Shown one piece after another: positions 52,161-64,000 of a stretch of DNA of 64,000 nt. Position 1 is the first letter of the stretch. Each line of letters opens with the position of its first letter. Below the pieces are notes generated by a model. That model was given only the letters and a program-made list of their open reading frames with translations. It was not told the origin of the DNA and did no database searches. Both the position numbers and the translations under genes were made by a program. The stretch covers positions 411 through 64,410 of the forward strand of contig JAJEBV010000050.1 of assembly GCA_022822365.1 (NCBI GenBank). Reading direction: 5' to 3'. This DNA is from Thermoanaerobaculia bacterium. Its GTDB lineage: Bacteria > Acidobacteriota > Thermoanaerobaculia > Multivoradales > Multivoraceae.

Positions 52161-53354
52161 CTAGCTCCTCCTCGACGGCTTCCCCAGCAACGCGTCCGAC
52201 ACGATCTTCAGCATGATCTCCGACGTCCCCTCGAAGATCTTCGTCAGCCGCGCGTCGCGCCAGTAGCGCTCCACCGGGTAGTCCGTCGTGTAGCCCGCGC
52301 CGGCGAGCACCTGCAGCGCGTCCGAGCACACCCGCTCCGACATCTCGGCGGCGTAGTACTTCACCATCGCCGCTTCCTTGGCGCAGGACACGCCGGTGTC
52401 GATCTTGGCGCACACCGAGTAGTTCAACTGCCGGGCCGCCTCGACCTCGGCCGCCATGTTCGCGATCTTGAAGCGGATCGCCTGGAAGTCGGCGATCGGC
52501 CGCCGGAACTGGATGCGTTCCTTGGAGTACGCGATCGCCTGCTCCAGCGCGCCCTGGGCGAGGCCGATCGACCGTGCCGCCGTGTGGGCCCGGGCCGACT
52601 GCAGGCCGCGCGTCATGCCGTAGAACGCCTGGCCCTTGGACTCTCGCTGCTGCTTCGTGACCGGCACCCGCACGTTCTCGAAGTGGAGCTCCCAGGTCTT
52701 CCAGCCGTGGTAGCCGATCTTCGGGATCGGCGAGCCCGTGACGCCCTCCGGCAGCTCGCCGGGCGGCTTCTCGATCCCGATGCCGGTCAGCGCCGCGTGG
52801 CGCTTCGACGGGTCGCCCTCCGTCCGCGCGATGACCTGGATGAAGTTCGCGCCGTCGGCGAACGTGCACCAGTACTTGTTGCCGGTGATCACCCAGTGGT
52901 CGTCCTCCATCCGCGCCCGGCAGGTGATCGACGAAATGTCCGACCCGACCTCCGGCTCCGACATCGCGAGCGCGCCGAGGTACTTGCCCTCCGCCATCAG
53001 CCGGATCCGCTTCAGGCGCTCCTCGCCTTCGAACGGAATCGAGCGGTAGAACCCGTTGCCGCGGGCAATGATGCTCGCCACGCTCATCCAGCCCCGCGCC
53101 AGCTCCTCGGCGACCAGGCAGTACTCGAAGGCGCCCAGCCCTGCACCGCCGTACTCCTCCGGGATCACGATGCCGAAGAAGCCCAACTCGCCCATCTTGT
53201 CGATCAGCGACTGCGGGATCGTCTCCTTCTTCGGGTCGAGCTCGTTGGCAACCGGGAGGACCTCCTTGTCCGTGAAGTCCCGGGCGATCCGGCGGAGCAT
53301 CTCGCGCTCCGGGGTCATGTAGCCGACGGTCTGGGTGGGTGTGACGTCGTTCAT
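52161..53354 (-). CDS. acyl-CoA dehydrogenase
   Basis: 397 aa with 'YWCTFADGAN'-type and C-terminal 'IFEGTSEI' ACAD signatures. Putative catalytic Glu in 'YPVERYWRDAR'. Confidence 0.85.
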   Translation of the reverse strand: MNDVTPTQTVGYMTPEREMLRRIARDFTDKEVLPVANELDPKKETIPQSLIDKMGELGFFGIVIPEEYGGAGLGAFEYCLVAEELARGWMSVASIIARGNGFYRSIPFEGEERLKRIRLMAEGKYLGALAMSEPEVGSDISSITCRARMEDDHWVITGNKYWCTFADGANFIQVIARTEGDPSKRHAALTGIGIEKPPGELPEGVTGSPIPKIGYHGWKTWELHFENVRVPVTKQQRESKGQAFYGMTRGLQSARAHTAARSIGLAQGALEQAIAYSKERIQFRRPIADFQAIRFKIANMAAEVEAARQLNYSVCAKIDTGVSCAKEAAMVKYYAAEMSERVCSDALQVLAGAGYTTDYPVERYWRDARLTKIFEGTSEIMLKIVSDALLGKPSRRS

Positions 53355-53431
53355 GCGGTGGTCAACTGGTGGCGAGCACTACGGCGACCCCTGCTAGCGT
53401 CGCGAGCCACGGGGCCTAGGGAGTGGAGTCA

Positions 53432-53608
53432 ATGGAAGACCTGAGTGTACGTCGCCTGGAGGTGCGTGAGGAGAGCGAACCTTCCTTCGCCTCCCGGTGG
53501 AGGGGCAAGTTCCGGGAGTCACGCCGGGACGATGTGCGGTACAAGGTGCTCGCCGGCAAGTACCTTGCCGGTGCCACACGCGGGCGCTCGGCAGAGAAGG
53601 CCGAATGA
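53432..53608 (+). CDS. small basic hypothetical protein (58 aa) translationally coupled to HicB-like gene, possible toxin partner
   Basis: SD 'GGAGTGGAG' then ATG 53432. Its stop overlaps the HicB-like start in 'ATGA'. No similarity to HicA recognised. Confidence 0.3.
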   Translation: MEDLSVRRLEVREESEPSFASRWRGKFRESRRDDVRYKVLAGKYLAGATRGRSAEKAE

Positions 53609-53835
53609 AGTACAAGGGCTACATCGCCGCCGTCGACTACGACGACTCGGAAGGTCGTCTACAAGGCTGGACGGCCAACACCAGCCCCTATCCCATCGCG
53701 ACCTTTGAAGCGAACGACGCCGACGCGATGCGAAGCGAGTTCGAGCGTTCCATCGACGAGTACCTGGTGTCGTGCGAGGAGGACGGCGTGGAACCTCGAG
53801 CACCGCTTCCGGCTGTCTCCGTCCTGCGACGCTGA
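53605..53835 (+). CDS. HicB-like (UPF0150 family) antitoxin-type protein
   Basis: 'MKYKGYIAAVDYDDSEGRLQGWTANTSPYPIATFEANDADAMRSEFERSIDEYLVSCEEDGVEP' matches the characteristic HicB_lk_antitox N-terminus (KGY..V.YD.E.G...G). Confidence 0.6.
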   Translation: MKYKGYIAAVDYDDSEGRLQGWTANTSPYPIATFEANDADAMRSEFERSIDEYLVSCEEDGVEPRAPLPAVSVLRR

Positions 53836-54005
53836 TTCATGTGACGGCCGACGCCCAGCACTCTCGCCTCATCGGTCACATCAGACCGAGCGGTTGGAGG
53901 CAGTTCTCACGGATACTGTGGCCTGGATGGGGAGGGTTGATCATCGTTCATGTTTCAGTCTCCATGCGACCCGAGAGGTTCTGTCCCCCTGAGCTGGGGT
54001 CCTTG

Positions 54006-54419
54006 CTACGCCGGAGGGATGATGACCCAGTTCGAGTGCTTCGCAAACCATCTCCGGCGGCTCCTCGTCTTCGGACCGCAGACCAAGGCGTGGGCGGTTT
54101 CGTCAGGAAGCGGATCGGGATGGACCGTCTGCTGTTTCTGGCGGAACCTCTTGGCAGTGGTCGACACTAGACCGAAGCCCGGATGCCCGGCCATCACCCG
54201 GTCCGGGCGGCCGCCTTCCGCCACGATGATGTCCTCGCGATAGACAGACATGGGATCCTCGCGACGGTCGTCGTAGAAGGCTGCCGAAGAAAGCCGACGA
54301 CGTCCGCTGTTCTTGTCGGGCACGAAGTGCCTTGGTGGAATCCGCCTCAGCAGGTTCACGTCGTCGTCGATCTCTGGATCGTCGGGAAACCGCGCCCGGC
54401 ACTCTTCGGGCGATGTCAC
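54006..54419 (-). CDS. hypothetical protein (lower-GC islet)
   Basis: Protein-like composition only from about 54419 downward ('VTSPEECRARFPDDPEIDDDVNLLRRIPPRHFVPDK...'). GTG start lies 4 nt after the upstream stop. The 5' part of the track ORF overlaps the previous gene out of frame. Confidence 0.3.
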   Translation of the reverse strand: MTSPEECRARFPDDPEIDDDVNLLRRIPPRHFVPDKNSGRRRLSSAAFYDDRREDPMSVYREDIIVAEGGRPDRVMAGHPGFGLVSTTAKRFRQKQQTVHPDPLPDETAHALVCGPKTRSRRRWFAKHSNWVIIPPA

Positions 54420-54423
54420 GAGG

Positions 54424-54960
54424 TCAGTCTGAAGCCCGAGCCAACCACACGCGAAGGGCGGCGTCATTGGGGGCAAGGACCTCGTCCGCTGTCTCGCCGC
54501 TTGCCACATCTTCGGCAAACCAAGACGGCGGGATGTCGGGGCAGAACTCAACTTCGATATCCACTCCGCCTTGGTGCCATTCGAGTTGGATTCCCCCCGG
54601 AGCCGTCGGTACGACGGCGGGTGACGCCAAGTTCGGGATCGTTGTTGCGGCCTCGAGGAGGAACGTGAGTGCCTCCCTAAGGGACTCCTGAGAGATGGGC
54701 GCGGCATCGTAGGAGTTCCAGCCCCGAGGGAGTTGCAGTAGCTCGGCTGCCCGACGGATCGCCTCAAGTACGGGCTTCGACGGGAGTTGAGCCGCGTCGA
54801 TCAAGACGCGATACGGTCCACTATCAACTCGGAACCGCACCCCGGGCAGAGCAGGATCGCTCGCAAGTTGGCTCGACGCGCTCCACGATGTCGTGTGCTC
54901 GTCCGGCGAACCAAGCGGTTCAGAGAGAATCATGTGGCCCGATTGGGCTGTGTCAAGCAT
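54424..54960 (-). CDS. hypothetical protein (lower-GC islet)
   Basis: 178 aa with balanced composition ('LPRGWNSYDAAPISQESLREALTFLLEAATTIPNL...'). Overlaps the upstream gene by 8 nt. Confidence 0.45.
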   Translation of the reverse strand: MLDTAQSGHMILSEPLGSPDEHTTSWSASSQLASDPALPGVRFRVDSGPYRVLIDAAQLPSKPVLEAIRRAAELLQLPRGWNSYDAAPISQESLREALTFLLEAATTIPNLASPAVVPTAPGGIQLEWHQGGVDIEVEFCPDIPPSWFAEDVASGETADEVLAPNDAALRVWLARASD

Positions 54961-55771
54961 CTGTTCGCTCCCATAGACGATGCATCAAGCCAGTCGTCAG
55001 ATCCGCGAATCCGCGGACGACCCACTCTCGGCCCACGTCGAGAAACCCAAAGGCGCCTTCCAGTCCCTCCCCGGTCGGACGACCCCGCGCCATGAGCCGG
55101 AATGCCCATAGGCGTTTTCCGCTGGAATCCCATGCTGGCTGGACGAAGACGTGTAAGCGGCCGGCTTCATCCGGCATTCGGAATCGCCAGCTCAACGACA
55201 GGTCCTCTGGGACGGGCAGGAAGGAGGACTTCCGAAGCGGCTGCCAGTTCGCGACCAGCTTCTCCACGCGACTGAACTCCGGCTCATCCAGATCGACGTG
55301 GTTCACGTAGGTGACCTCGCACTGGTTGATCGAAAGGCCGTCCAGGCGTTGCTCGTTGAGGAATCCGACAAGAGCACGGACTTCACGCTTGAACTGGTCC
55401 CGAATCGTCTCGTACCGCGGATAGTGGTCCTGTGCACCCGTCTTGCGCCAGTTGTGGACGAATCGGTCAGGCTGAATCTGGAGCAGCTCTGTCTTCTCCT
55501 CGTTCAGAAACCACACACGCGGTGCAGGCGGTTTGTTGCCGAAGGCGATCGAGACCCCCTGGGGAGCAGGCGGGCCGAAATCTTCTTTGGCCGACTCGAG
55601 CGGAGGATGTTCTTCGATAAGAGGAAGTTGCTGCCGGTAGTTGCTCTGCCAGAGGAGCCCGACGTGAGCCGTTGTCAGTCCGGGCAAGGGCTCGAACTGT
55701 ACCGATAGCGCGACCTCCACAAGCGGCGGCTTGCGGAAGTCAGGCAGTCCGGGAGGCCGGCCCTTGGTCAC
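54953..55771 (-). CDS. hypothetical protein, resembles sporadically distributed TIGR04255-type family
   Basis: 272 aa with N-terminal 'PPLVEVALSVQFEP'. The family call rests on memory of the motif only. Confidence 0.45.
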   Translation of the reverse strand: MTKGRPPGLPDFRKPPLVEVALSVQFEPLPGLTTAHVGLLWQSNYRQQLPLIEEHPPLESAKEDFGPPAPQGVSIAFGNKPPAPRVWFLNEEKTELLQIQPDRFVHNWRKTGAQDHYPRYETIRDQFKREVRALVGFLNEQRLDGLSINQCEVTYVNHVDLDEPEFSRVEKLVANWQPLRKSSFLPVPEDLSLSWRFRMPDEAGRLHVFVQPAWDSSGKRLWAFRLMARGRPTGEGLEGAFGFLDVGREWVVRGFADLTTGLMHRLWERTDA

Positions 55772-55906
55772 AGTTCAGATGACGAGCGTTGCGGGGGCAC
55801 GTGCCGAAGCCGAGTACAGCAGAGCTTGAACCCTACCGAGCGAATCAAGACGGTATCACTTGGGCGAAGAGGCGCTGCGCCAGCCCCAAAACGGTCCGTG
55901 CGCCCG

Positions 55907-56800
55907 TCATCGAGCACGCGGATGCCAGTCCGGCGAACCCAGCCGCGTCTGATCGCCGACAATCTCCGCCAGCACCGGCTCGATGTACCCGAAGAACCGC
56001 TCCGGGTCCTCCGACATCGGGAAGTGGCCTAGGCCCTCCATCGTCCGGTACGTCGCGCCCTTGATCTGGCTCGCGACTTCTTCGGACGCCTCCGGCGGCG
56101 TCGCAGCGTCATACTCGCCGGTCAGCAGGAACACCCGCGTCTGCGAGGTGTCGATCTCCGACGCCCGGTCGCCCAGATCGTGGTCGGTGCCCCAGTAGAA
56201 GAGGTCGCCCCGGAACACCCGCGGCGCGCCCTGGCTGTAGCACCAGCCGACCTCGCGGCGGAAGGCCTCCGGCGCCTTGGGCGAGGTGATCCCGATCATC
56301 AGGTCGCTCTTGTAGCCGTTGTTGATCTCGGGGTGGTCGAGCAGGTCGATGTTGCCGGGGTCCGACTTGATCGCTGCCTCCAGCCCGATGACGGCCTGGA
56401 ACAGGCCTGGCCGGTGCAGCGCCAGGTCGAGGGCCAGGTGGCCGCCGATCGAGCTGCCCATGTAGACCGGGTCTTCGAGCTGGAGTTCGCCAACGAAGCC
56501 GGCGACGAAGTCGAGCAGGAAGCTCTTCGTCAGCCTGTACTCCTGCTTCCACCACTCGACGCCCGTGGGCGGCACGGACTTGGCGTGGTAGGGCAGGTCG
56601 TAGGCCAGCAGGTGGTAGTGCCGGCCGATCCGCTCGTCCTCTAGCTGGTGGCGCCACTGGCGGCCGTCGGAACCGGCGGTGTGCTGCAGGACCAGCGGAA
56701 TACCGTCCGGGTTCCCGGCCGACTCGAAGTAGACCTCGTAGGAAACGCCCTGGACTTCGAGGTCCAGGTAGCGGCCGACCCGCTTCGCGAACGTGGGCAT
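55907..56800 (-). CDS. alpha/beta-fold hydrolase
   Basis: 'VLQHTAGSDGRQW' and nucleophile elbow 'GSSIGG'. Asp/His later ('GEYD', 'GHFPMSEDP'). Confidence 0.8.
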   Translation of the reverse strand: MPTFAKRVGRYLDLEVQGVSYEVYFESAGNPDGIPLVLQHTAGSDGRQWRHQLEDERIGRHYHLLAYDLPYHAKSVPPTGVEWWKQEYRLTKSFLLDFVAGFVGELQLEDPVYMGSSIGGHLALDLALHRPGLFQAVIGLEAAIKSDPGNIDLLDHPEINNGYKSDLMIGITSPKAPEAFRREVGWCYSQGAPRVFRGDLFYWGTDHDLGDRASEIDTSQTRVFLLTGEYDAATPPEASEEVASQIKGATYRTMEGLGHFPMSEDPERFFGYIEPVLAEIVGDQTRLGSPDWHPRAR

Positions 56801-57586: not shown

Positions 57587-57610
57587 CCGGGAATCGTAGC
57601 GCGGCAACCT

Positions 57611-57796
57611 CCGCTGGGTACGCGGGTCTTCTGACCCGCCCCGGGTGAAGCCGCGGAGCGGCGGAGCCCGGAGCAAGGCGGCCGCCGGCGAAGCCGGCGA
57701 CGATACTGAAGCCGCCCGGAGGGAAGGTCGGCCCTCCGGCCGGCGTTTCAAAGCCGCCTTCGGCGGCAGCGGGTCAGAAGACCCGCGCACCCAGCA
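57611..57796. repeat. REP/MITE-like full element (R-arm + about 125-bp spacer-1 + F-arm), direct copy of 58251..58436
   Basis: 'CCGCTGGGTACGCGGGTCTTCTGACCCGCCCCGGGTGAAGCCGCGGAGCGGCGGAGCCCGGAG...GGCCGGCGTTTCAAAGCCGCCTTCGGCGGCAGCGGGTCAGAAGACCCGCGCACCCAGCAG', about 95% identical to the second copy. Confidence 0.9.
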
Positions 57797-57803
57797 GAAC
57801 TTC

Positions 57804-58166
57804 TCAGCCGGCGCGGGCGCCGTTCGGGACCGGGCGCTCGGGAGTCAGCAACGCTGGAAGAAGACCATCCTCATAGCCGACATCGAACAGCATGCCCTGC
57901 GAGGTGATCCCCATCATCTTCCTCGGCTCCAGGTTGACGATGAACAACGCCTGCCGACCTTCGATCTCGGTCGGGTCCTCGCGCTCCTGTTTCATCCCCG
58001 CGAGGATCGTCCGCTTGTGGTCGCCGAAATCGACCTCGAGTCGCACGAGCCTCGTCGATCCTTCGACCTCGCTGACGCTCTCGATCGTGCCGACGCGGGC
58101 GTCCACCTGATTGACGACACCGATGTCGATGGCGGGCTTCACCGGTGCGGGCTTCATCTCTTCCAA
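57804..58166 (-). CDS. tRNA-binding domain protein (CsaA / Myf-domain type)
   Basis: SD 'GGGAGA' precedes ATG. 'IDIGVVNQVD...LVRLEVDFGD...ILAGM' is typical of the OB-fold tRNA-binding (EMAP/CsaA) domain. Confidence 0.7.
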   Translation of the reverse strand: MEEMKPAPVKPAIDIGVVNQVDARVGTIESVSEVEGSTRLVRLEVDFGDHKRTILAGMKQEREDPTEIEGRQALFIVNLEPRKMMGITSQGMLFDVGYEDGLLPALLTPERPVPNGARAG

Positions 58167-58250
58167 GACCGATCCTCCCTTGTGGCCGTTCGAGCCGGCG
58201 AAGCGTACCGGGAGACCGAGGCATGAGTAGCTGGGCGTGCGGGGTCCACT

Positions 58251-58436
58251 TCCGCTGGGTGCGCGGGTCTTCTGACCCGCCCCGGGCGGAGCCGCGGAGC
58301 GGCGGAGCCCGGAGGAAACTGCCGCCGGCGAAGCCGGCGACGATACTGAAGCCGCCCGGAGGAAGGTCGGCCTTCGGCCGGCGTTTCAAGGCCGCCTTCG
58401 GCGGCAGCGGGTCAGAAGACCCGCGCACCCAGCAGA
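58251..58436. repeat. REP/MITE-like full element (direct repeat of 57611..57796)
   Basis: Same arms and spacer as the first copy. The two copies bracket the csaA-like gene. Confidence 0.9.
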
Positions 58437-58488
58437 GGCAGCCAGCGGAGGGGCGATCGCCACCCCTCGTGGTAGAAACTTCGCCGCA

Positions 58489-59527: not shown

Positions 59528-60759
59528 TGGGCCCAGCCACAGGCCCCCTCTCCGACATCGTCATCATCGACTGCACGATGGCGCTCGCCGGGCCATTCGG
59601 CTCGGCCATCCTCGCCGACCTCGGGGCCGACGTGATCAAGGTCGAGCCGCCGACGGGCGACATGTCGCGGCCGTCCCCGCCGATCCCCGAGGACTTCATC
59701 CACCCCGCCCAGGGCAAGGCCGGGGTCGACGGGGGCTGCGACTTCGGCGGCTACTTCGGCAGCATCAACCGCAACAAGCGCAGCATCGCCCTCAACCTGA
59801 AGGACGAAGCCGACCGCGAGACCTTCCTCCGCCTGTGCGAGCAGGCCGACGCCGTGCTCGAGAACATGCGCGCCGGCGTGATGGACCGGCTCGGGCTGAG
59901 CTACGAGGTCATCCGCGAGCGCAACGCGCGAATCGTCTACGCGGCGCTCCGCGGCTTCGGCGACCCGCGGACCGGCGAGAGCCCCTACGCCGACTGGCCC
60001 GCCTTCGACATCGTGGCCCAGGCGATGGGCGGCTTCGCCCACGTCAACGGCCCCCGGGGCGACGGCGACCGTCCCGGCGGCGGCTACCCCGGCGGCGCCT
60101 CCGTCGGCGACCTGTTCCCCGGGGCGCTGATGGCGCTCGGCGTCGTCGCCGGGGTGCACCACGCGCGGCGGACCGGCAAGGGCCAGTTCATGGACGTCGC
60201 CATGATCGACGGCGTCAACCTCCTGTGCGAGTCCGTGTTCGCGAACTACGGCTCCGCCAGGCGCCACCAGCTCCCGCCGCGCGGCAAGCACCACCACAGC
60301 CTGAGCCCGTTCGGCATCTACGACGCGAAGGACGGCGGCGTGGCCATCGCCGCGCCCCTGCCGGCGCAGTGGGAGATCCTGTGCCGGGAGATGGGACGGC
60401 CCGACCTGGTCGACGACGAACGCACCAGCGACTTCGCCGCCCGCCGCGACAACCGGGACTACGTCGAAGGCGTCGTCGCCGGGTGGACCGGCTCGCTCAC
60501 CCGCGCCGAGGTCGTCGACGCGCTGGCCGGCCGGGTCCCCTGCGGCCCCGTGCAGACCGCGGCCGACATCTTCGAGAGCCCCCACACCGCGGTCCGCGAG
60601 ATGGTCGCCGAGATCGAGCTCCCGGGCGACAACGCGCCGGTCAAGATCGTCGGCAGCCCGATCAAGTACACCGAAACGAAGACCGGCGTGCGCCGGCGGG
60701 CGCCCCTGCTCGACGAGCACCACGACGAGATCCTCGCCCAGTTCGGGATCAAGGCCTGA
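59527..60759 (+). CDS. family III CoA-transferase (CaiB/BaiF)
   Basis: GTG start overlaps the upstream stop. 'IIDCTMALAGPFGSAILADLGADVIKVE' N-terminus and the conserved Asp region 'GRPDLVDDER' characteristic of family III. Confidence 0.85.
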   Translation: MGPATGPLSDIVIIDCTMALAGPFGSAILADLGADVIKVEPPTGDMSRPSPPIPEDFIHPAQGKAGVDGGCDFGGYFGSINRNKRSIALNLKDEADRETFLRLCEQADAVLENMRAGVMDRLGLSYEVIRERNARIVYAALRGFGDPRTGESPYADWPAFDIVAQAMGGFAHVNGPRGDGDRPGGGYPGGASVGDLFPGALMALGVVAGVHHARRTGKGQFMDVAMIDGVNLLCESVFANYGSARRHQLPPRGKHHHSLSPFGIYDAKDGGVAIAAPLPAQWEILCREMGRPDLVDDERTSDFAARRDNRDYVEGVVAGWTGSLTRAEVVDALAGRVPCGPVQTAADIFESPHTAVREMVAEIELPGDNAPVKIVGSPIKYTETKTGVRRRAPLLDEHHDEILAQFGIKA

Positions 60760-60778
60760 GATCAAGGAGTAAGGACAC

Positions 60779-61681
60779 ATGCGACTGAGACGCTCCGAAC
60801 TGGCCGTGCCCGCCAGCAACCCGCGGATGGTCGAGAAGTCGGCGCAGAGCGACGCCGACCTCGTCTTCCTCGACCTGGAAGACGCCGTCGCCCCCGACAG
60901 GAAGGAAGGCGCGCGCCAGATCGCCATCGACGGCCTGAACGACCTCGACTGGGGCAGCAAGGTGCGCTCCGTGCGCGTCAACGACCACACCACCCGCTGG
61001 GCCGTCGACGACATGATCAGCATGGTCGAAGGCGCGGGCGAGAACATCGACGTCATCATCCTGCCCAAGGTCAAGCAGCCCCGCGACGTCTGGTTCTTCG
61101 AGACGATGCTCGACGGCCTCGAACAGAAGCTCGGTCTTACGCGCCAAATCGGCCTAGAAGCGCTGATCGAAGAAGCCGAAGGCCTCGCCAACGTGGAGGC
61201 CATCGCCACCTGCTCACCCCGCCTCGAAGCCCTGATCCTCGGCTTCGGCGACCTCTCCGCCAGCATGGGCATGCGCTTCGGCCACGAGCTCGACAAGGAC
61301 TTCCGCTACCCCGGCGACATGTGGTCCGCCCACCGCGTCCGCATGATCGCCGCCTGCCGCGCCGCCGGCATCGACGCCATCGACGGCCCCTTCGGCGACT
61401 TCAGGAACGACAAGGCCTACCTCAAGCAGGCCACCTGGTCCGCCAGCCTAGGCGCCGTCGGCAAGTGGTGCATCCATCCCGACCAGATTCCGCTGGCCAA
61501 CGACGTCTTCGCCCCGTCGCCCAGGGAGATCGAGCAGGCGCAGAAGATGGTCGATCTCTACAACGAGTCCGTGGCGAAGGGGGCCGGGGCTGGAGGCAAG
61601 GGGGGGCAGTTGGTGGATGCGGCTACGTTGCGGATCTATGAGCCGGTGTTGGAGAGGGCGCGGGCTACTGGGCGGTTGTAG
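60779..61681 (+). CDS. HpcH/HpaI-CitE-family acyl-CoA lyase (malyl-/citramalyl-CoA lyase-like)
   Basis: 300 aa. 'LDLEDAVAPDRKEGAR' and 'LILGFGDLSASMG' CitE-like motifs. Confidence 0.8.
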   Translation: MRLRRSELAVPASNPRMVEKSAQSDADLVFLDLEDAVAPDRKEGARQIAIDGLNDLDWGSKVRSVRVNDHTTRWAVDDMISMVEGAGENIDVIILPKVKQPRDVWFFETMLDGLEQKLGLTRQIGLEALIEEAEGLANVEAIATCSPRLEALILGFGDLSASMGMRFGHELDKDFRYPGDMWSAHRVRMIAACRAAGIDAIDGPFGDFRNDKAYLKQATWSASLGAVGKWCIHPDQIPLANDVFAPSPREIEQAQKMVDLYNESVAKGAGAGGKGGQLVDAATLRIYEPVLERARATGRL

Positions 61682-61750
61682 GGCTGGCGCTTGGCGTCTC
61701 TGCGGCAACAACCAAGTGCGCCGGCACCCTCGTCGTCCCACGAAACGGCG

Positions 61751-62500
61751 TCACGCCCTCGCGGCTCGACTCACCAATTCGAACAGCTCTCTAGGGAGCG
61801 CCGTGTGACCGTCCCCCTGCCGCTCAAGCGTGTCCTTCTTCTCCTTCTCCGTAGAACTAGCAGTATAGATAATCAACGGCGTCTGATCCCCGTCCTTCCT
61901 CAACTTGCTGAGCAAGGCGTAGCCCGCCTGCTTGTCCTCCGGCCGGCCCATATCTGAGATGATCACGCCAGCACGTCGAAGCTTATGCTTCTCTAGAGCC
62001 TCCTGAGTCGAGCGGGCACAAGTGACGCTCCAGCCCAGGCTCTCAAACAACTCTCGCTCGAAAGCGTTATTGTCTGGTTTGTCATCAACCCACAGAATCT
62101 CCCGACGCGTCTCGTGGCCGCCCGTGAACCAAGGGGTCGAGAAGAGAATCGAACTCACTAGAGGCTCGATACTCTCCGGCCTGTTGGCGGCGCTTGTGCC
62201 CTTCGTCGTCGCGGCACCTAGAGAGACACTTGCTCTGATGAGATTCGCCAAGTCCTCGGGGCCATAGAGCTTCTCACTGTGCTTGGAGACCAACCACACA
62301 AATGTCGTAAGTACTGCCACCGGGAACGCCACCACGAAGTAAACGAGGGGAACGCGCTCCGGAACTGTGAGGAACTCACCCTGTATTATCGTCACTCCCG
62401 CCACGACCTCCACGAGACCAAGCGAGATCGCCACGATGGCGAGCGGGTTGAGAGGCAAACGGGAGCTGATGGCGCGGGAACGCTCTCTGATTGGATTCAC
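61751..62500 (-). CDS. membrane-anchored stand-alone receiver (REC) domain protein
   Basis: SD 'GGAGGAGG' then GTG. Two N-terminal TM helices, then 'ILWVDDKPDN...VIISDMGRP...PLIIYTAS' (acidic pair, phospho-acceptor Asp, conserved Thr) and no output domain. Lower-GC region. Confidence 0.5.
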   Translation of the reverse strand: MNPIRERSRAISSRLPLNPLAIVAISLGLVEVVAGVTIIQGEFLTVPERVPLVYFVVAFPVAVLTTFVWLVSKHSEKLYGPEDLANLIRASVSLGAATTKGTSAANRPESIEPLVSSILFSTPWFTGGHETRREILWVDDKPDNNAFERELFESLGWSVTCARSTQEALEKHKLRRAGVIISDMGRPEDKQAGYALLSKLRKDGDQTPLIIYTASSTEKEKKDTLERQGDGHTALPRELFELVSRAARA

Positions 62501-62707
62501 GGACCTCCTCCAGAGGACACAGGTATGGCGCTTCGAGCGAGCTCAGCACATCTGGGCACGACTCGTCATCGAGCGGGATAATCGCATCCCCTTAGGCAGT
62601 GACTATCGCCCCGTCGTCGGCAGCCTCTTGCTCATGTCATGGACTCTGCCATTCAAGCGCGGACTACGGAGAAGCTGAGGAGACGTAGCTGATCTCCGCC
62701 ACGGGCA

Positions 62708-63124
62708 TCACGCCGCCGTCAGACGCACCCGTTCCCCGTCCAGTTCGACCGTGGTCTTGGAGTAGGTCAGCTTCTGCACGATCTTGCCGTCCCTGAAGTG
62801 CAGAATATCGAGGCCGCGTCTGGCTTCGTGTTTGTCTCCCTGGCCCTTCTCGAACGAGGGTGAGTCGAGCTGCCAGCGGAAGAGCATCTTCTGTTCGACT
62901 TCGTCGATGAAGGTCTCTTCGGTCGTGAACTTGAAGTCTCCATGATTGGCGAACCATGGTGCCCATGCCGCACGGAGATTCTCCTTGCCGCGGACCGAGG
63001 CTCCGGTCCAGTTCTCGAAGTAGATCTCGTCGTCAAACAGGTCCATCACCCCGTCGAGGTCGTGCTCGTTCCAGGCGGCGCCCCATCTGGCGAACGCGCT
63101 GAACATTTCGTCTCGTGTCAGCAT
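62708..63124 (-). CDS. NTF2-like / SnoaL-like fold protein
   Basis: Strong SD 'AAGGAGGA' before ATG 63124. 'MLTRDEMFSAFARWGAAWNEHDLDGVMDLFDDEIYFENWTG...' is typical of the SnoaL_2/NTF2 fold. Confidence 0.6.
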   Translation of the reverse strand: MLTRDEMFSAFARWGAAWNEHDLDGVMDLFDDEIYFENWTGASVRGKENLRAAWAPWFANHGDFKFTTEETFIDEVEQKMLFRWQLDSPSFEKGQGDKHEARRGLDILHFRDGKIVQKLTYSKTTVELDGERVRLTAA

Positions 63125-63508
63125 GGTCTTCCTCCTTGGTGGCGGCACGGGCAACTCGCTGCGCCAGGAGTGTAGTCGACCGGCCCCACGGAGATCGGCT
63201 TGCAGCAGCGCGACGATGACGCCGACGCGATGCAGGGCGTCGCGTCGCGCGCACGCCGGGTTCGCCAGCGGCTCGGCCTGACCGGCGCGACGCGCGCTCT
63301 GCTCCGGCTACTCGGCAGATCGCCCTAGACCGCGCTGTGAGCGCCGTCCTGAAAGGCCGGAGTCCCGCGGCGGTGGCACGGCGGTAAAGGGAGCACTTCG
63401 TGGATGCGGGCACTTTCCGGGGCCATCAGCCGGTGTCGGATCCCCCGTGCGTTCCATCGTCCTCTTCCCTTCCAGTTCGCCGCGCGATACGGCGAGTTCC
63501 AAGAGGTC

Positions 63509-64000
63509 TCAATCTTCTCGGGCCGCTTGCCGAAGATAGTCCAGCAAGCTCTGCGGGAAGAGCACCGCGCCATTCGAGAAGCCGCTAGGCCCAACCGCCT
63601 TGTGCGCCACGCGAATGGCAGTACGGCAACAATCCGCAGCCTCTTCCTCTGTAACGCTCGGTGACCAATCGTGGAGGACCCTCCTTCGCCAGTCCTTCAA
63701 CTGGCGAAGATCACTGATTAGAGACTCGTCTACCCCGGCGCTCTCCATCTCATTGATGCGACCGGCAAACCACGGCGCATCTTTGCCATCCTTGCCGGGA
63801 TTCTCTACCGACCACCAGAGCATGGTAATCATCTCGGCCGCCATCCCACACATCGCAACAGCGGCAGTCTTGTCACCGAGTCCAAACGCCACCACCGCCG
63901 AACGGAGGGGCCAGACTATCCTGCTTATGATCCCCTCTTCGGCCGGCACGAACGCAAGCGTCGACCCGTCGGGAGCGACCTGGCGCCAGCGTTCGGCGAT
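63509..64000 (-). CDS. hypothetical protein, probably 5'-truncated by window end
   Basis: The frame stays open upstream of the annotated Met to the window end ('...RWRQVAPDGSTLAFVPAEEGIISRIVWP...'). Confidence 0.3.
   Translation of the reverse strand: MAERWRQVAPDGSTLAFVPAEEGIISRIVWPLRSAVVAFGLGDKTAAVAMCGMAAEMITMLWWSVENPGKDGKDAPWFAGRINEMESAGVDESLISDLRQLKDWRRRVLHDWSPSVTEEEAADCCRTAIRVAHKAVGPSGFSNGAVLFPQSLLDYLRQAARED

Follow-up and report, generated by a model that had tools for sequence, protein, structure and literature searches.

A widespread candidate TIGR04255 gene cassette, distantly related to PDC-M32, and adjoining antitoxin fragments in a variable hotspot of a Thermoanaerobaculia bacterium

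The window analysed in this study, i.e., the whole stretch of 64,000 nt taken from contig JAJEBV010000050.1 (positions 411 to 64,410) of a Thermoanaerobaculia bacterium, carries at 53400-55800 an islet of lowered GC content with five small genes, which are named A to E here. Three of them, read in the order E-D-C on the minus strand, form a conserved operon that, as judged from comparison with its homologs, is under purifying selection. On the basis of profile matches, this operon is an uncharacterised, widespread candidate system with a distant relationship to PDC-M32, itself a candidate of the PADLOC collection, and it is probably a conflict-type cassette, that is, one of the toxin-antitoxin (TA) or defence kind. 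The other two genes, A and B, are fragments derived from antitoxins, and the remnant of an antitoxin gene, higA, lies between the two groups. A preliminary description of this DNA had listed the same five open reading frames (ORFs), and all of them are indeed present. They have conserved homologs and a ratio of nonsynonymous to synonymous substitution rates (dN/dS) below 1, and for this reason they are considered to be real genes. The same description had named two outcomes that would speak against a defence or addiction island, namely small ORFs that were not real genes and had no conserved homologs, and proteins of the housekeeping type inherited vertically at a conserved syntenic position. 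Both were examined and neither was encountered.

Gene E (54953-55771, minus strand) is the first gene of the operon and codes for a protein of 272 aa that was thought to be TIGR04255-like. It belongs to this family, with a score of 66.4 bits against the NCBIfam model (curated cut-off 30; E 3.2e-18) and a match spanning residues 12-268 of E and positions 2-252 of the 252 positions of the profile. Its dN/dS is 0.15-0.17. The stop of E overlaps the start of gene D by 8 nt (ATGCTTGA). Gene D (54424-54960, minus strand; 178 aa, putative neutraliser or adaptor) is followed by gene C (54006-54419, minus strand), a putative effector or toxin of 137 aa with a GTG start. The length of C is backed by 69 aligned homologs, the gene callers having picked a form of 81 aa, and given this length D and C are separated by a spacer of 4 nt. 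The overlapping junctions described earlier for the three-gene set therefore hold for E and D but not for D and C. Searches of Pfam, NCBIfam, PHROGs and PADLOC with the single proteins and with family alignments gave nothing for C, D and E beyond PDC-M32 (C and D) and TIGR04255 (E); E had no relative in Pfam, PADLOC or the PDB, profiles included. No meaningful PDB match was obtained for B, C, D or E in sequence and profile searches, some of them broadened. E, D and C, previously described as lacking an assignable function, thus have neither a Pfam family nor a solved relative recognisable by sequence.

The C-terminal part of D provides a connection to a catalogued candidate system. D matches PDC-M32A of PADLOC with an E value of 2.2e-10, residues 68-151 aligning with positions 262-345 of the 375-position profile. 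PDC-M32 is a two-gene candidate predicted by 'guilt-by-embedding' in type I restriction-modification (RM), BREX and DISARM systems (Payne et al., bioRxiv 10.1101/2024.01.29.577857). The C family is related to the second component, PDC-M32B: 27 of 69 family members match PDLC04579 (best E 2e-5), and remote members of the triad reach 6e-4 to 0.015. The order of the genes is also the same (D-like, then C-like), and the cassettes of relatives adjoin type I RM genes. A PADLOC-style screen, as recommended in the preliminary description, gave these matches for D and for the C family; the C protein of the window itself reaches just E 0.051, and E is unmatched. There are further differences. PDC-M32A is a protein of 375 aa, the N-terminal 260 residues of which are unmatched here, so the likeness falls short of full length, and in the window the D domain stands alone with a TIGR04255 gene ahead of it. 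The possibility that E is the missing N-terminal part of PDC-M32A, i.e., that a fusion had been split, was rejected, as none of 32 members of the E family matches PDC-M32A; E-D-C is therefore not simply a split PDC-M32.

Close homologs of D are few, and a profile search recovered 6436 cluster representatives sharing its C-terminal domain (E<=1e-3). This alpha/beta domain is marked by the motifs LP.GWNSY.A.PI and VVPT.RGG.QLEWH..G.D.E.E. In the AlphaFold2 (AF2) model of D (mean predicted local distance difference test, pLDDT, 86.7) the domain consists of two helices and five strands, and the N-terminal residues, about 40 in number, are of low confidence. A fold search with the model gave no convincing PDB neighbour, and D has no Pfam or PDB match by sequence. 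The domain was also seen in other arrangements. A short phage-like metagenome contig (L081, 1057-1779; loci other than the window are designated by L and a number) codes for a 240-aa protein with the D-family domain at residues 15-137. Its product is tagged PF26761 (Acb5), presumably in the C-terminal 100 residues, and the gene upstream codes for a CxxC-rich protein of 284 aa. Acb5 is a phage anti-CBASS enzyme that cleaves cyclic GMP-AMP (cGAMP). On an Acetobacter persici plasmid (L069, 4938-6243), two D-type domains stand in tandem in one protein of 297 aa; the next gene bears the annotation ClpXP specificity-enhancing factor (SspB-like), and another SspB-like gene lies 3 kb upstream.

The conservation of the operon was assessed in 54 genome loci, recovered with the C family from one-genome-per-species contigs. 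E-D-C was contiguous and in that order in 45 of the 54, and D and C were adjacent in 49, including those 45. Two loci (L036 and L044) have D-C without E, and in three others (L055, L057 and L070) an unrelated protein of 220 aa takes the place of E upstream of D-C. By this distribution, D-C is the conserved core and the upstream gene is exchangeable. The carriers are mostly Acidobacteriota of the Vicinamibacterales, Bryobacterales and Thermoanaerobaculia, with a few among Acidimicrobiia, Planctomycetota, Gemmatimonadales, Dormibacterota, Myxococcota and proteobacteria. The cassette also occurs on mobile elements. A diverged triad adjoins a MobF relaxase gene on a plasmid of Mycobacterium paragordonae, and the P2-like Ralstonia phage YO139_2 has one at its end, where the E homolog scores 151 bits against TIGR04255 and the other two proteins match hidden Markov models (HMMs) built in this study with E values of 1e-8 (D-like) and 2e-9 (C-like). 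Two IMG/VR contigs carry E-D-C as well, one near an integrase and one amid tail genes. Patterns of the C family were searched for in viral contigs and were not found. In two unrelated genomes a transposase gene sits exactly between D and C of otherwise intact cassettes, IS66-like in L048 (4439-5962, minus strand) and IS4-like in L060 (2167-3429, plus strand), these labels being read from the sequence and not from an HMM. Two further loci deserve mention for their structure. L045 (752-2637) contains two E-D-C cassettes about 3 kb apart, adjoining an integrase fragment. In L065 (5698-9093), a long ORF considered as a possible D-C fusion was rejected as such, because it is a deletion remnant, read from stop to stop, in which the C-terminal part of D continues into the middle of C.

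The site occupied by the islet could be followed among close relatives of the host. The acyl-CoA dehydrogenase (ACAD) gene at one border of the islet (52161-53354, minus strand) is 93-97% identical to those of metagenome-assembled genomes labelled Candidatus Multivorans and Thermoanaerobaculia (Acidobacteriota), which places the host close to Candidatus Multivorans, and close relatives keep the site between ACAD and the alpha/beta hydrolase (ABH), with variable contents. Compared with L006, the ACAD of the window is 96.7% identical and has a synonymous divergence (dS) of 0.20. For E, D and C the identities are 67%, 42% and 69%, respectively, and dS is 1.2-1.9; D is thus the fastest-evolving of the three. 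Moreover, the cassette of L006 lies at the opposite end of the island and in reverse orientation relative to the window. Because of this discrepancy in dS and the difference in placement and orientation, the cassettes of the window and L006 represent, on the evidence of their divergence, distinct alleles that have been exchanged at a single site.

A defence-type insertion had been suggested for the islet, and the contents of the site in relatives agree with it. In L007 the order is ACAD, E, D, C, HsdM, AbiEi, AbiEii, HsdS, HicB and HicA. In L006, HsdM is followed by a gene whose product of 2141 aa has weak Pfam tags for NACHT and AAA_16/AAA_22. In L011 and L012 the hydrolase is followed by E, D, C and HsdR, then by HicB (L011) or Fic (L012), and then by HsdS, AbiEii, AbiEi and HsdM. 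Type I RM, AbiEi/AbiEii, HicAB, Fic and a NACHT-tagged gene are therefore all found at this site in relatives. In L017 and L015, E, D and C are followed by a gene of 270 aa and HigA, and then by A-B in the opposite orientation, and in L076 the same site carries A-B plus a PNPOx gene only, with no E-D-C. The 270-aa gene of L017 (6579-7391) and L015 (6580-7392), which lies between C and HigA and is not in the window, contains the motif RTHTGSAHGRG, which we take to resemble a motif of the Abi_C/HEPN type of abortive-infection proteins. A wider test across the 54 genome loci found homologs of the few testable defence or mobility genes within 6 kb in 8 loci only. This test was crude, as the probes were homologs of few annotated defence genes, and its outcome neither proves nor excludes enrichment.

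These distributions bear on the question of whether the cassette acts in defence at all. E-D-C could serve mobile elements for addiction or stabilisation alone, working by post-segregational killing and having no phage role, with its siting in defence islands due to shared 'junkyard' hotspots. The position beside a MobF relaxase on a conjugative-type plasmid, the cassettes at prophage ends or near integrases, the low count of neighbouring defence and mobility homologs and the antitoxin remnants (A, B and the higA fragment) around the cassette of the window would all be in accordance with such a role. However, D and C are related to PDC-M32, which was chosen for its embedding inside RM, BREX and DISARM operons, and the cassettes of close relatives adjoin type I RM, AbiE and the NACHT-tagged gene. 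In addition, many chromosomal copies lie among housekeeping genes, with no element to stabilise. An exclusive addiction role is thus considered unlikely, and in any case addiction and anti-phage roles are not mutually exclusive.

The nature of C was approached through its predicted structure. The family comprises 77 homologs, mostly of about 137 aa, and the AF2 model of the window protein (pLDDT 92.9) describes a small alpha/beta protein. Foldseek searches, which had been proposed in the preliminary description for the unassigned proteins, gave no convincing neighbour for D, as mentioned above, but pointed to a weak Tpt1/KptA-type likeness for C. Its best structural neighbours in the PDB and BFVD are Tpt1/KptA, DarT and HopF/AvrPphF. 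The PDB matches with alignable template modelling (TM) scores (about 0.3-0.4) were nearly all KptA/Tpt1 chains, together with AvrPphF ORF2, with DarTG lower, each of them having the ADP-ribosyltransferase (ART) fold; Tpt1-like viral proteins were among the BFVD matches too. Five residues of C are invariant across remote homologs (R25, A47, S58, R93 and H110) and S45 is nearly so. C has an arginine on the first core strand and a serine-rich motif before the next helix, which recalls ARTs of the R-S-E type.

Against an assignment of C to this fold stand several facts. The best PDB match is weak (E 0.06, Foldseek probability 0.82, TM 0.41), and the scores in general lie below significance (E at least 0.014-0.06, TM about 0.4); C has just 137 aa, and no Pfam match and no PDB relative by sequence or profile was found for it. 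No canonical H-Y-E, R-S-E or Tpt1 R-H-R-R motif is apparent in the sequence alignments of C. Neither the invariant catalytic glutamate nor the Arg-His-Arg-Arg tetrad could be recognised in them, and there is no invariant Glu or Asp in the family, E107 being replaced by N or D in remote homologs and the invariant His110 standing where the catalytic acidic residue would be expected. If C is of the ART type, it would therefore be a non-canonical one, since an invariant acidic residue is missing. The proposal that C is an ART/Tpt1-type enzyme using NAD+, which is derived from the predicted model, is accordingly tentative and rather doubtful. Among the homologs, two from Myxococcota (L064, 2038-2601; L066, 5956-6648) are extended at the C terminus by a long low-complexity stretch, the last segment of which is hydrophobic and transmembrane-like.

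The same structural neighbours can be read in another way. E-D-C might not be a toxin system but a benign accessory complex for nucleic-acid repair or modification, regulation or anti-defence, with C as a non-toxic Tpt1-like enzyme modifying RNA or DNA ends. The nearest fold relatives of C, Tpt1 and KptA, are repair or processing enzymes and not toxins; none of the three proteins matches a known toxin family; D has no DNA-binding domain of the antitoxin type; and the fusion of the D domain to the Acb5 anti-CBASS nuclease domain in one phage-like contig suggests use on the phage side. Features of the locus that are hallmarks of conflict systems are difficult to reconcile with this reading, i.e., the tightly packed small genes with an exchangeable upstream gene, the sporadic spread across phyla and the swapping of alleles at one hotspot. 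The two transposases placed precisely between D and C also argue against it, and so does the zeta toxin that occupies the equivalent third position after a TIGR04255 gene on a plasmid, as described below. A benign complex is therefore regarded as quite improbable, somewhat more so than an exclusive addiction module.

Plasmid-borne TIGR04255 genes provide a comparison for the third position. On a Vibrio parahaemolyticus plasmid (L078, 158-2105), a TIGR04255 gene is followed by a gene for a hypothetical protein of 179 aa, which is not D-like, and then by an annotated zeta toxin. Other plasmid TIGR04255 genes are followed by a gene for a 147-aa protein (Thermus) or by genes for proteins of 182 aa and 171 aa (Crinalium), and no likeness to D or C was found in the genes after the TIGR04255 genes of the Vibrio, Thermus and Crinalium plasmids. 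Antitoxins often evolve faster than toxins. The third position of E-D-C appears toxin-like because a zeta toxin follows TIGR04255 on the Vibrio plasmid, because insertion sequences have entered between D and C, and because D evolves faster than C.

In the model favoured here, for which the chances are judged to be about even, E-D-C would be a tripartite TA or abortive-infection module. C, which is small and the best conserved, would be the growth-arresting effector; it may use NAD+ to modify nucleic acid or protein, as an enzyme with the Tpt1/ADP-ribosyltransferase fold. D, which is fast-evolving and translated just before C, would bind and neutralise C or would reverse its action. E would be the exchangeable upstream part, which may sense a trigger or may regulate or stabilise D-C. 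The model draws indirect support from the toxin-like third position, from the occurrence of the cassette on a phage, a plasmid and viral contigs, and from its siting near defence genes. The division of roles between C (toxic effector) and D (its neutraliser), taken on its own, is supported to an equal degree, i.e., it may hold or fail with similar probability. The toxic member, the neutralisation step, the chemistry and the anti-phage role are what we infer from these comparisons.

The organisation resembles that of known three-gene TA operons, of which omega-epsilon-zeta and the toxin-antitoxin-chaperone systems (CmdTAC) are examples. Both here and there, three small, packed and co-oriented genes comprise a conserved putative effector, a faster middle gene and an accessory third protein; E-D-C occurs on plasmids and phages, and TIGR04255 is found before a hypothetical gene and a zeta toxin on the Vibrio plasmid. 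The CmdT component of CmdTAC is reportedly an ADP-ribosyltransferase, as is proposed for C. With type II TA systems in general, the operon shares adjacent, co-oriented small genes and a conserved pairing (D-C in 49 of 54 loci). On the other hand, no relation in sequence or fold to omega, epsilon, zeta, SecB-like chaperones or CmdT, CmdA and CmdC was found, E with its 272 aa is neither a small repressor nor a small chaperone, and the toxicity of E-D-C is a prediction only.

A number of observations weigh against the favoured model. D lacks a DNA-binding domain and its fold could not be recognised, and for this reason it is not a typical type II antitoxin. The adjacency of TIGR04255 and zeta toxin is a single case, with a gap of 108 nt. 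The defence and mobility homologs counted near the cassettes were few, and some cassettes lie among housekeeping genes (L008-L010 and L083). The 145 PDC systems, to which PDC-M32 belongs, are untested candidates according to their authors (10.1101/2024.01.29.577857). Finally, no papers on TIGR04255 were found in the searched literature. The most far-reaching version of the model is speculative and unlikely to be correct. In that version, TIGR04255-D-C would be a new and widespread tripartite anti-phage (abortive-infection) system. Nucleic acid would be modified in it by C, a minimal NAD+-dependent enzyme of 137 aa with the Tpt1/ADP-ribosyltransferase fold and a non-canonical Arg-Ser-His active site; D would represent a new kind of neutralising or reversing domain, one that phages also use, as in the Acb5 fusion; and infection would be sensed by TIGR04255, an exchangeable component able to work with unrelated toxins such as zeta.

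Genes A and B lie on the other side of the islet and on the plus strand. Gene A (53432-53608; 58 aa, a DUF6364-type antitoxin derivative) and gene B (53605-53835; 76 aa, a HicB N-terminal domain) are coupled by an overlap of the stop of A and the start of B in ATGA. B had been described as a HicB-like antitoxin gene. This is correct as far as its N-terminal, toxin-binding domain is concerned: B matches phrog_9151 ('HicB-like antitoxin') with an E value of 6.9e-14 over positions 5-71 of the 119-position profile, and it shares 68% identity with the first 75 residues of the 110-aa HicB of L007. The DNA-binding half, however, is absent. The HicB of L007 has PF05534 at residues 54-103 and a genuine HicA upstream (HicA_toxin E 3e-10), whereas B ends at 76 aa with no Pfam match and thus without the C-terminal PF05534 or ribbon-helix-helix (RHH) domain, and the DNA similarity between B and the hicB of L007 ends at the domain boundary. 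A recent frameshift that would have left the RHH part in another frame was considered and rejected, since the DNA similarity simply ends and the form of 76 aa is conserved. This short form is stable in several relatives, including L075 and L076, and B has a dN/dS of 0.36-0.49.

The partner upstream of B was correctly described as a 58-aa basic protein without resemblance to HicA. HicA (PF07927) was not found next to B, and A has no Pfam match, even at E<=10. Among the homologs of A (P0084-P0087), P0086 has no Pfam match either, whereas P0087, a protein of 73 aa, is a full DUF6364 protein (PF19891, E 6e-12, 46 bits) with weak matches to CcdA and RHH_1 in its N-terminal part. In the alignment, A keeps the C-terminal tail of DUF6364 (EPSFASRWRGKFR..DDVRY..LAGKYL), sharing with P0087 the motif EPSFASRWRG[KR]F..DD.RY..LA.KYL at 68% identity, but the RHH core of about 20-30 aa is missing, the protein falls below the Pfam threshold, and it carries a C-terminal extension. 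The copy of A in L017 retains the first RHH strand. The gene after A is moreover a HicB N-terminal domain and not a toxin. By these alignments A is derived from an antitoxin, which leaves the suggestion that it might be a different toxin without support. The other suggestion made for A, that it is the antitoxin of a swapped module, comes closer, although the DNA-binding RHH core has been lost.

It could still be imagined that A took the place of HicA as a small basic toxin of a new kind, with the HicB-like B as its neutraliser, so that the two would form an active swapped pair. A does stand exactly where hicA would be and is coupled to B through the same ATGA overlap, it is mildly basic, and the pair has kept the same gene lengths in L075, L076, L017 and L018 with dN/dS below 1. 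Nevertheless, this reading is very unlikely. The homology of A lies with the C-terminal tail of an RHH antitoxin-like protein (DUF6364), the N-terminal strand of which is still visible in L017, and B has no DNA-binding domain for autoregulation. In L015 (7728-7937, minus strand), the body of B is deleted and A runs into the last residues of B (…KYVDGGERLEPLPAPSDLRL), an arrangement that should be lethal if A were toxic. The pair is also rare, and searches of plasmids, viral contigs and JGI metagenomes for proteins like A or DUF6364 returned none.

The A-B pair has persisted as two short ORFs in a few close relatives. The gene lengths of the pair are kept in L075, L076, L017 and L018 at dS 0.55-0.94 with dN/dS of 0.33-0.45, and the ATGA coupling is kept in L075, L076 and L017. 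For A alone, dN/dS is 0.33 at dS 0.94 in the comparison with L075 and 0.98 in that with the closest relative, L076, at very low divergence. A and B are thus two toxin-binding antitoxin fragments, with no toxin beside them, that may serve as orphan neutralisers or may be slowly decaying. Some findings detract from a function of the pair: the constraint is relaxed (dN/dS 0.33-0.49 over both genes), and the loss of B in L015 is compatible with slow decay. No papers on DUF6364 were found in the searched literature.

The islet contains a third antitoxin sequence. Between B and C, at about 53840-53944 on the minus strand, lies the remnant of a higA gene (XRE-type antitoxin). Over some 108 nt, roughly 80% of its nucleotides agree with those of the intact higA of L017, which codes for 87 aa. 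The remnant reads MINPPHPGHSIRENCLQPLGL, then has a frameshift of 1 nt near 53881, and continues with VTDEARVLGVGRH; the remaining codons, about 50, are deleted. An intact higA occupies the corresponding position in L017, L015 and L075. The 270-aa gene and most of higA, which L017 and L015 still have, have been lost from the window. As read from its interrupted frame, the higA fragment is a dead remnant. It might be that A-B and the higA fragment are all decaying and functionless and that E-D-C is the only active part of the islet. The loss of the DNA-binding parts from both A and B, the frameshifted and truncated higA, the further decay of B in L015 and the dN/dS of A against L076, although taken at very low divergence, would agree with this. 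However, A and B retain their lengths and frames at considerable synonymous divergence with dN/dS well below 1, as well as the ATGA coupling, in the relatives given above. General decay is therefore a possible explanation but one held with considerable doubt, comparable to that attached to the ART assignment of C.

The composition of the islet is foreign to its surroundings, though less so than was first described. Among 2.4-kb segments, which average 0.689 in GC content (sd 0.023), the islet with its 0.625 ranks seventh lowest of 616, and the only other comparable dip within the window is at 60.5-64 kb. The drop itself was thus borne out, but the values of 58-60% against 70% given earlier were overstated, since 0.58-0.60 is reached solely by 300-nt segments around 55200-55650. 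The GC content at third codon positions is 0.67-0.77 in the five islet genes and 0.87-0.97 in ACAD, ABH and PrpD. The borders are as previously described, with ACAD on one side and ABH (55907-56800, minus strand) on the other, both supported by the Pfam tags of an identical metagenome scaffold, KELL22-1, of the soil or groundwater type. An integration site marked by flanking direct repeats, a tRNA gene or an Rfam element was searched for at the islet and rejected, as none of these was present. The occurrence of A-B without E-D-C in L076, together with the higA remnant that separates the two parts, indicates that the islet did not arrive as one insertion; it is a mosaic. The proposal of a small, horizontally acquired defence or addiction island is accordingly retained with respect to foreign composition and the variable site, and modified with respect to its unity: the islet is very probably a horizontally acquired mosaic within a variable hotspot.

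Some other features of the window were noted. Two copies of an element of about 200 bp, 93-100% identical in blocks, lie at 57603-57800 and 58248-58440. Each holds a 44-nt inverted repeat, resembling miniature inverted-repeat transposable elements (MITEs) or repetitive extragenic palindromic (REP) elements, and the copies flank a small tRNA-binding-domain gene at 57804-58166. In the second region of low GC content (60500-64000, GC 0.617-0.634), gene calls of the identical scaffold give a HpcH/HpaI-type lyase, a response regulator, a SnoaL-like protein and an unassigned protein of 203 aa, and just past the end of the window they give a TA-like pair of the Gp49/HTH_37 type.

TIGR04255 is a curated family that is routinely named by annotation pipelines and for which the searched literature offered no paper, and the domain of D, with about 6400 cluster representatives, has no entry in Pfam. 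Both are now placed in a compact cassette that moves among phages, plasmids and defence islands. If the cassette is truly a TA or anti-phage system, it would contribute a new effector family, possibly a minimal ART/Tpt1-like enzyme, plus a new accessory 'sensor' family. The locus also shows how such hotspots gather antitoxin fragments that have been stripped of domains and that appear to stay under selection.

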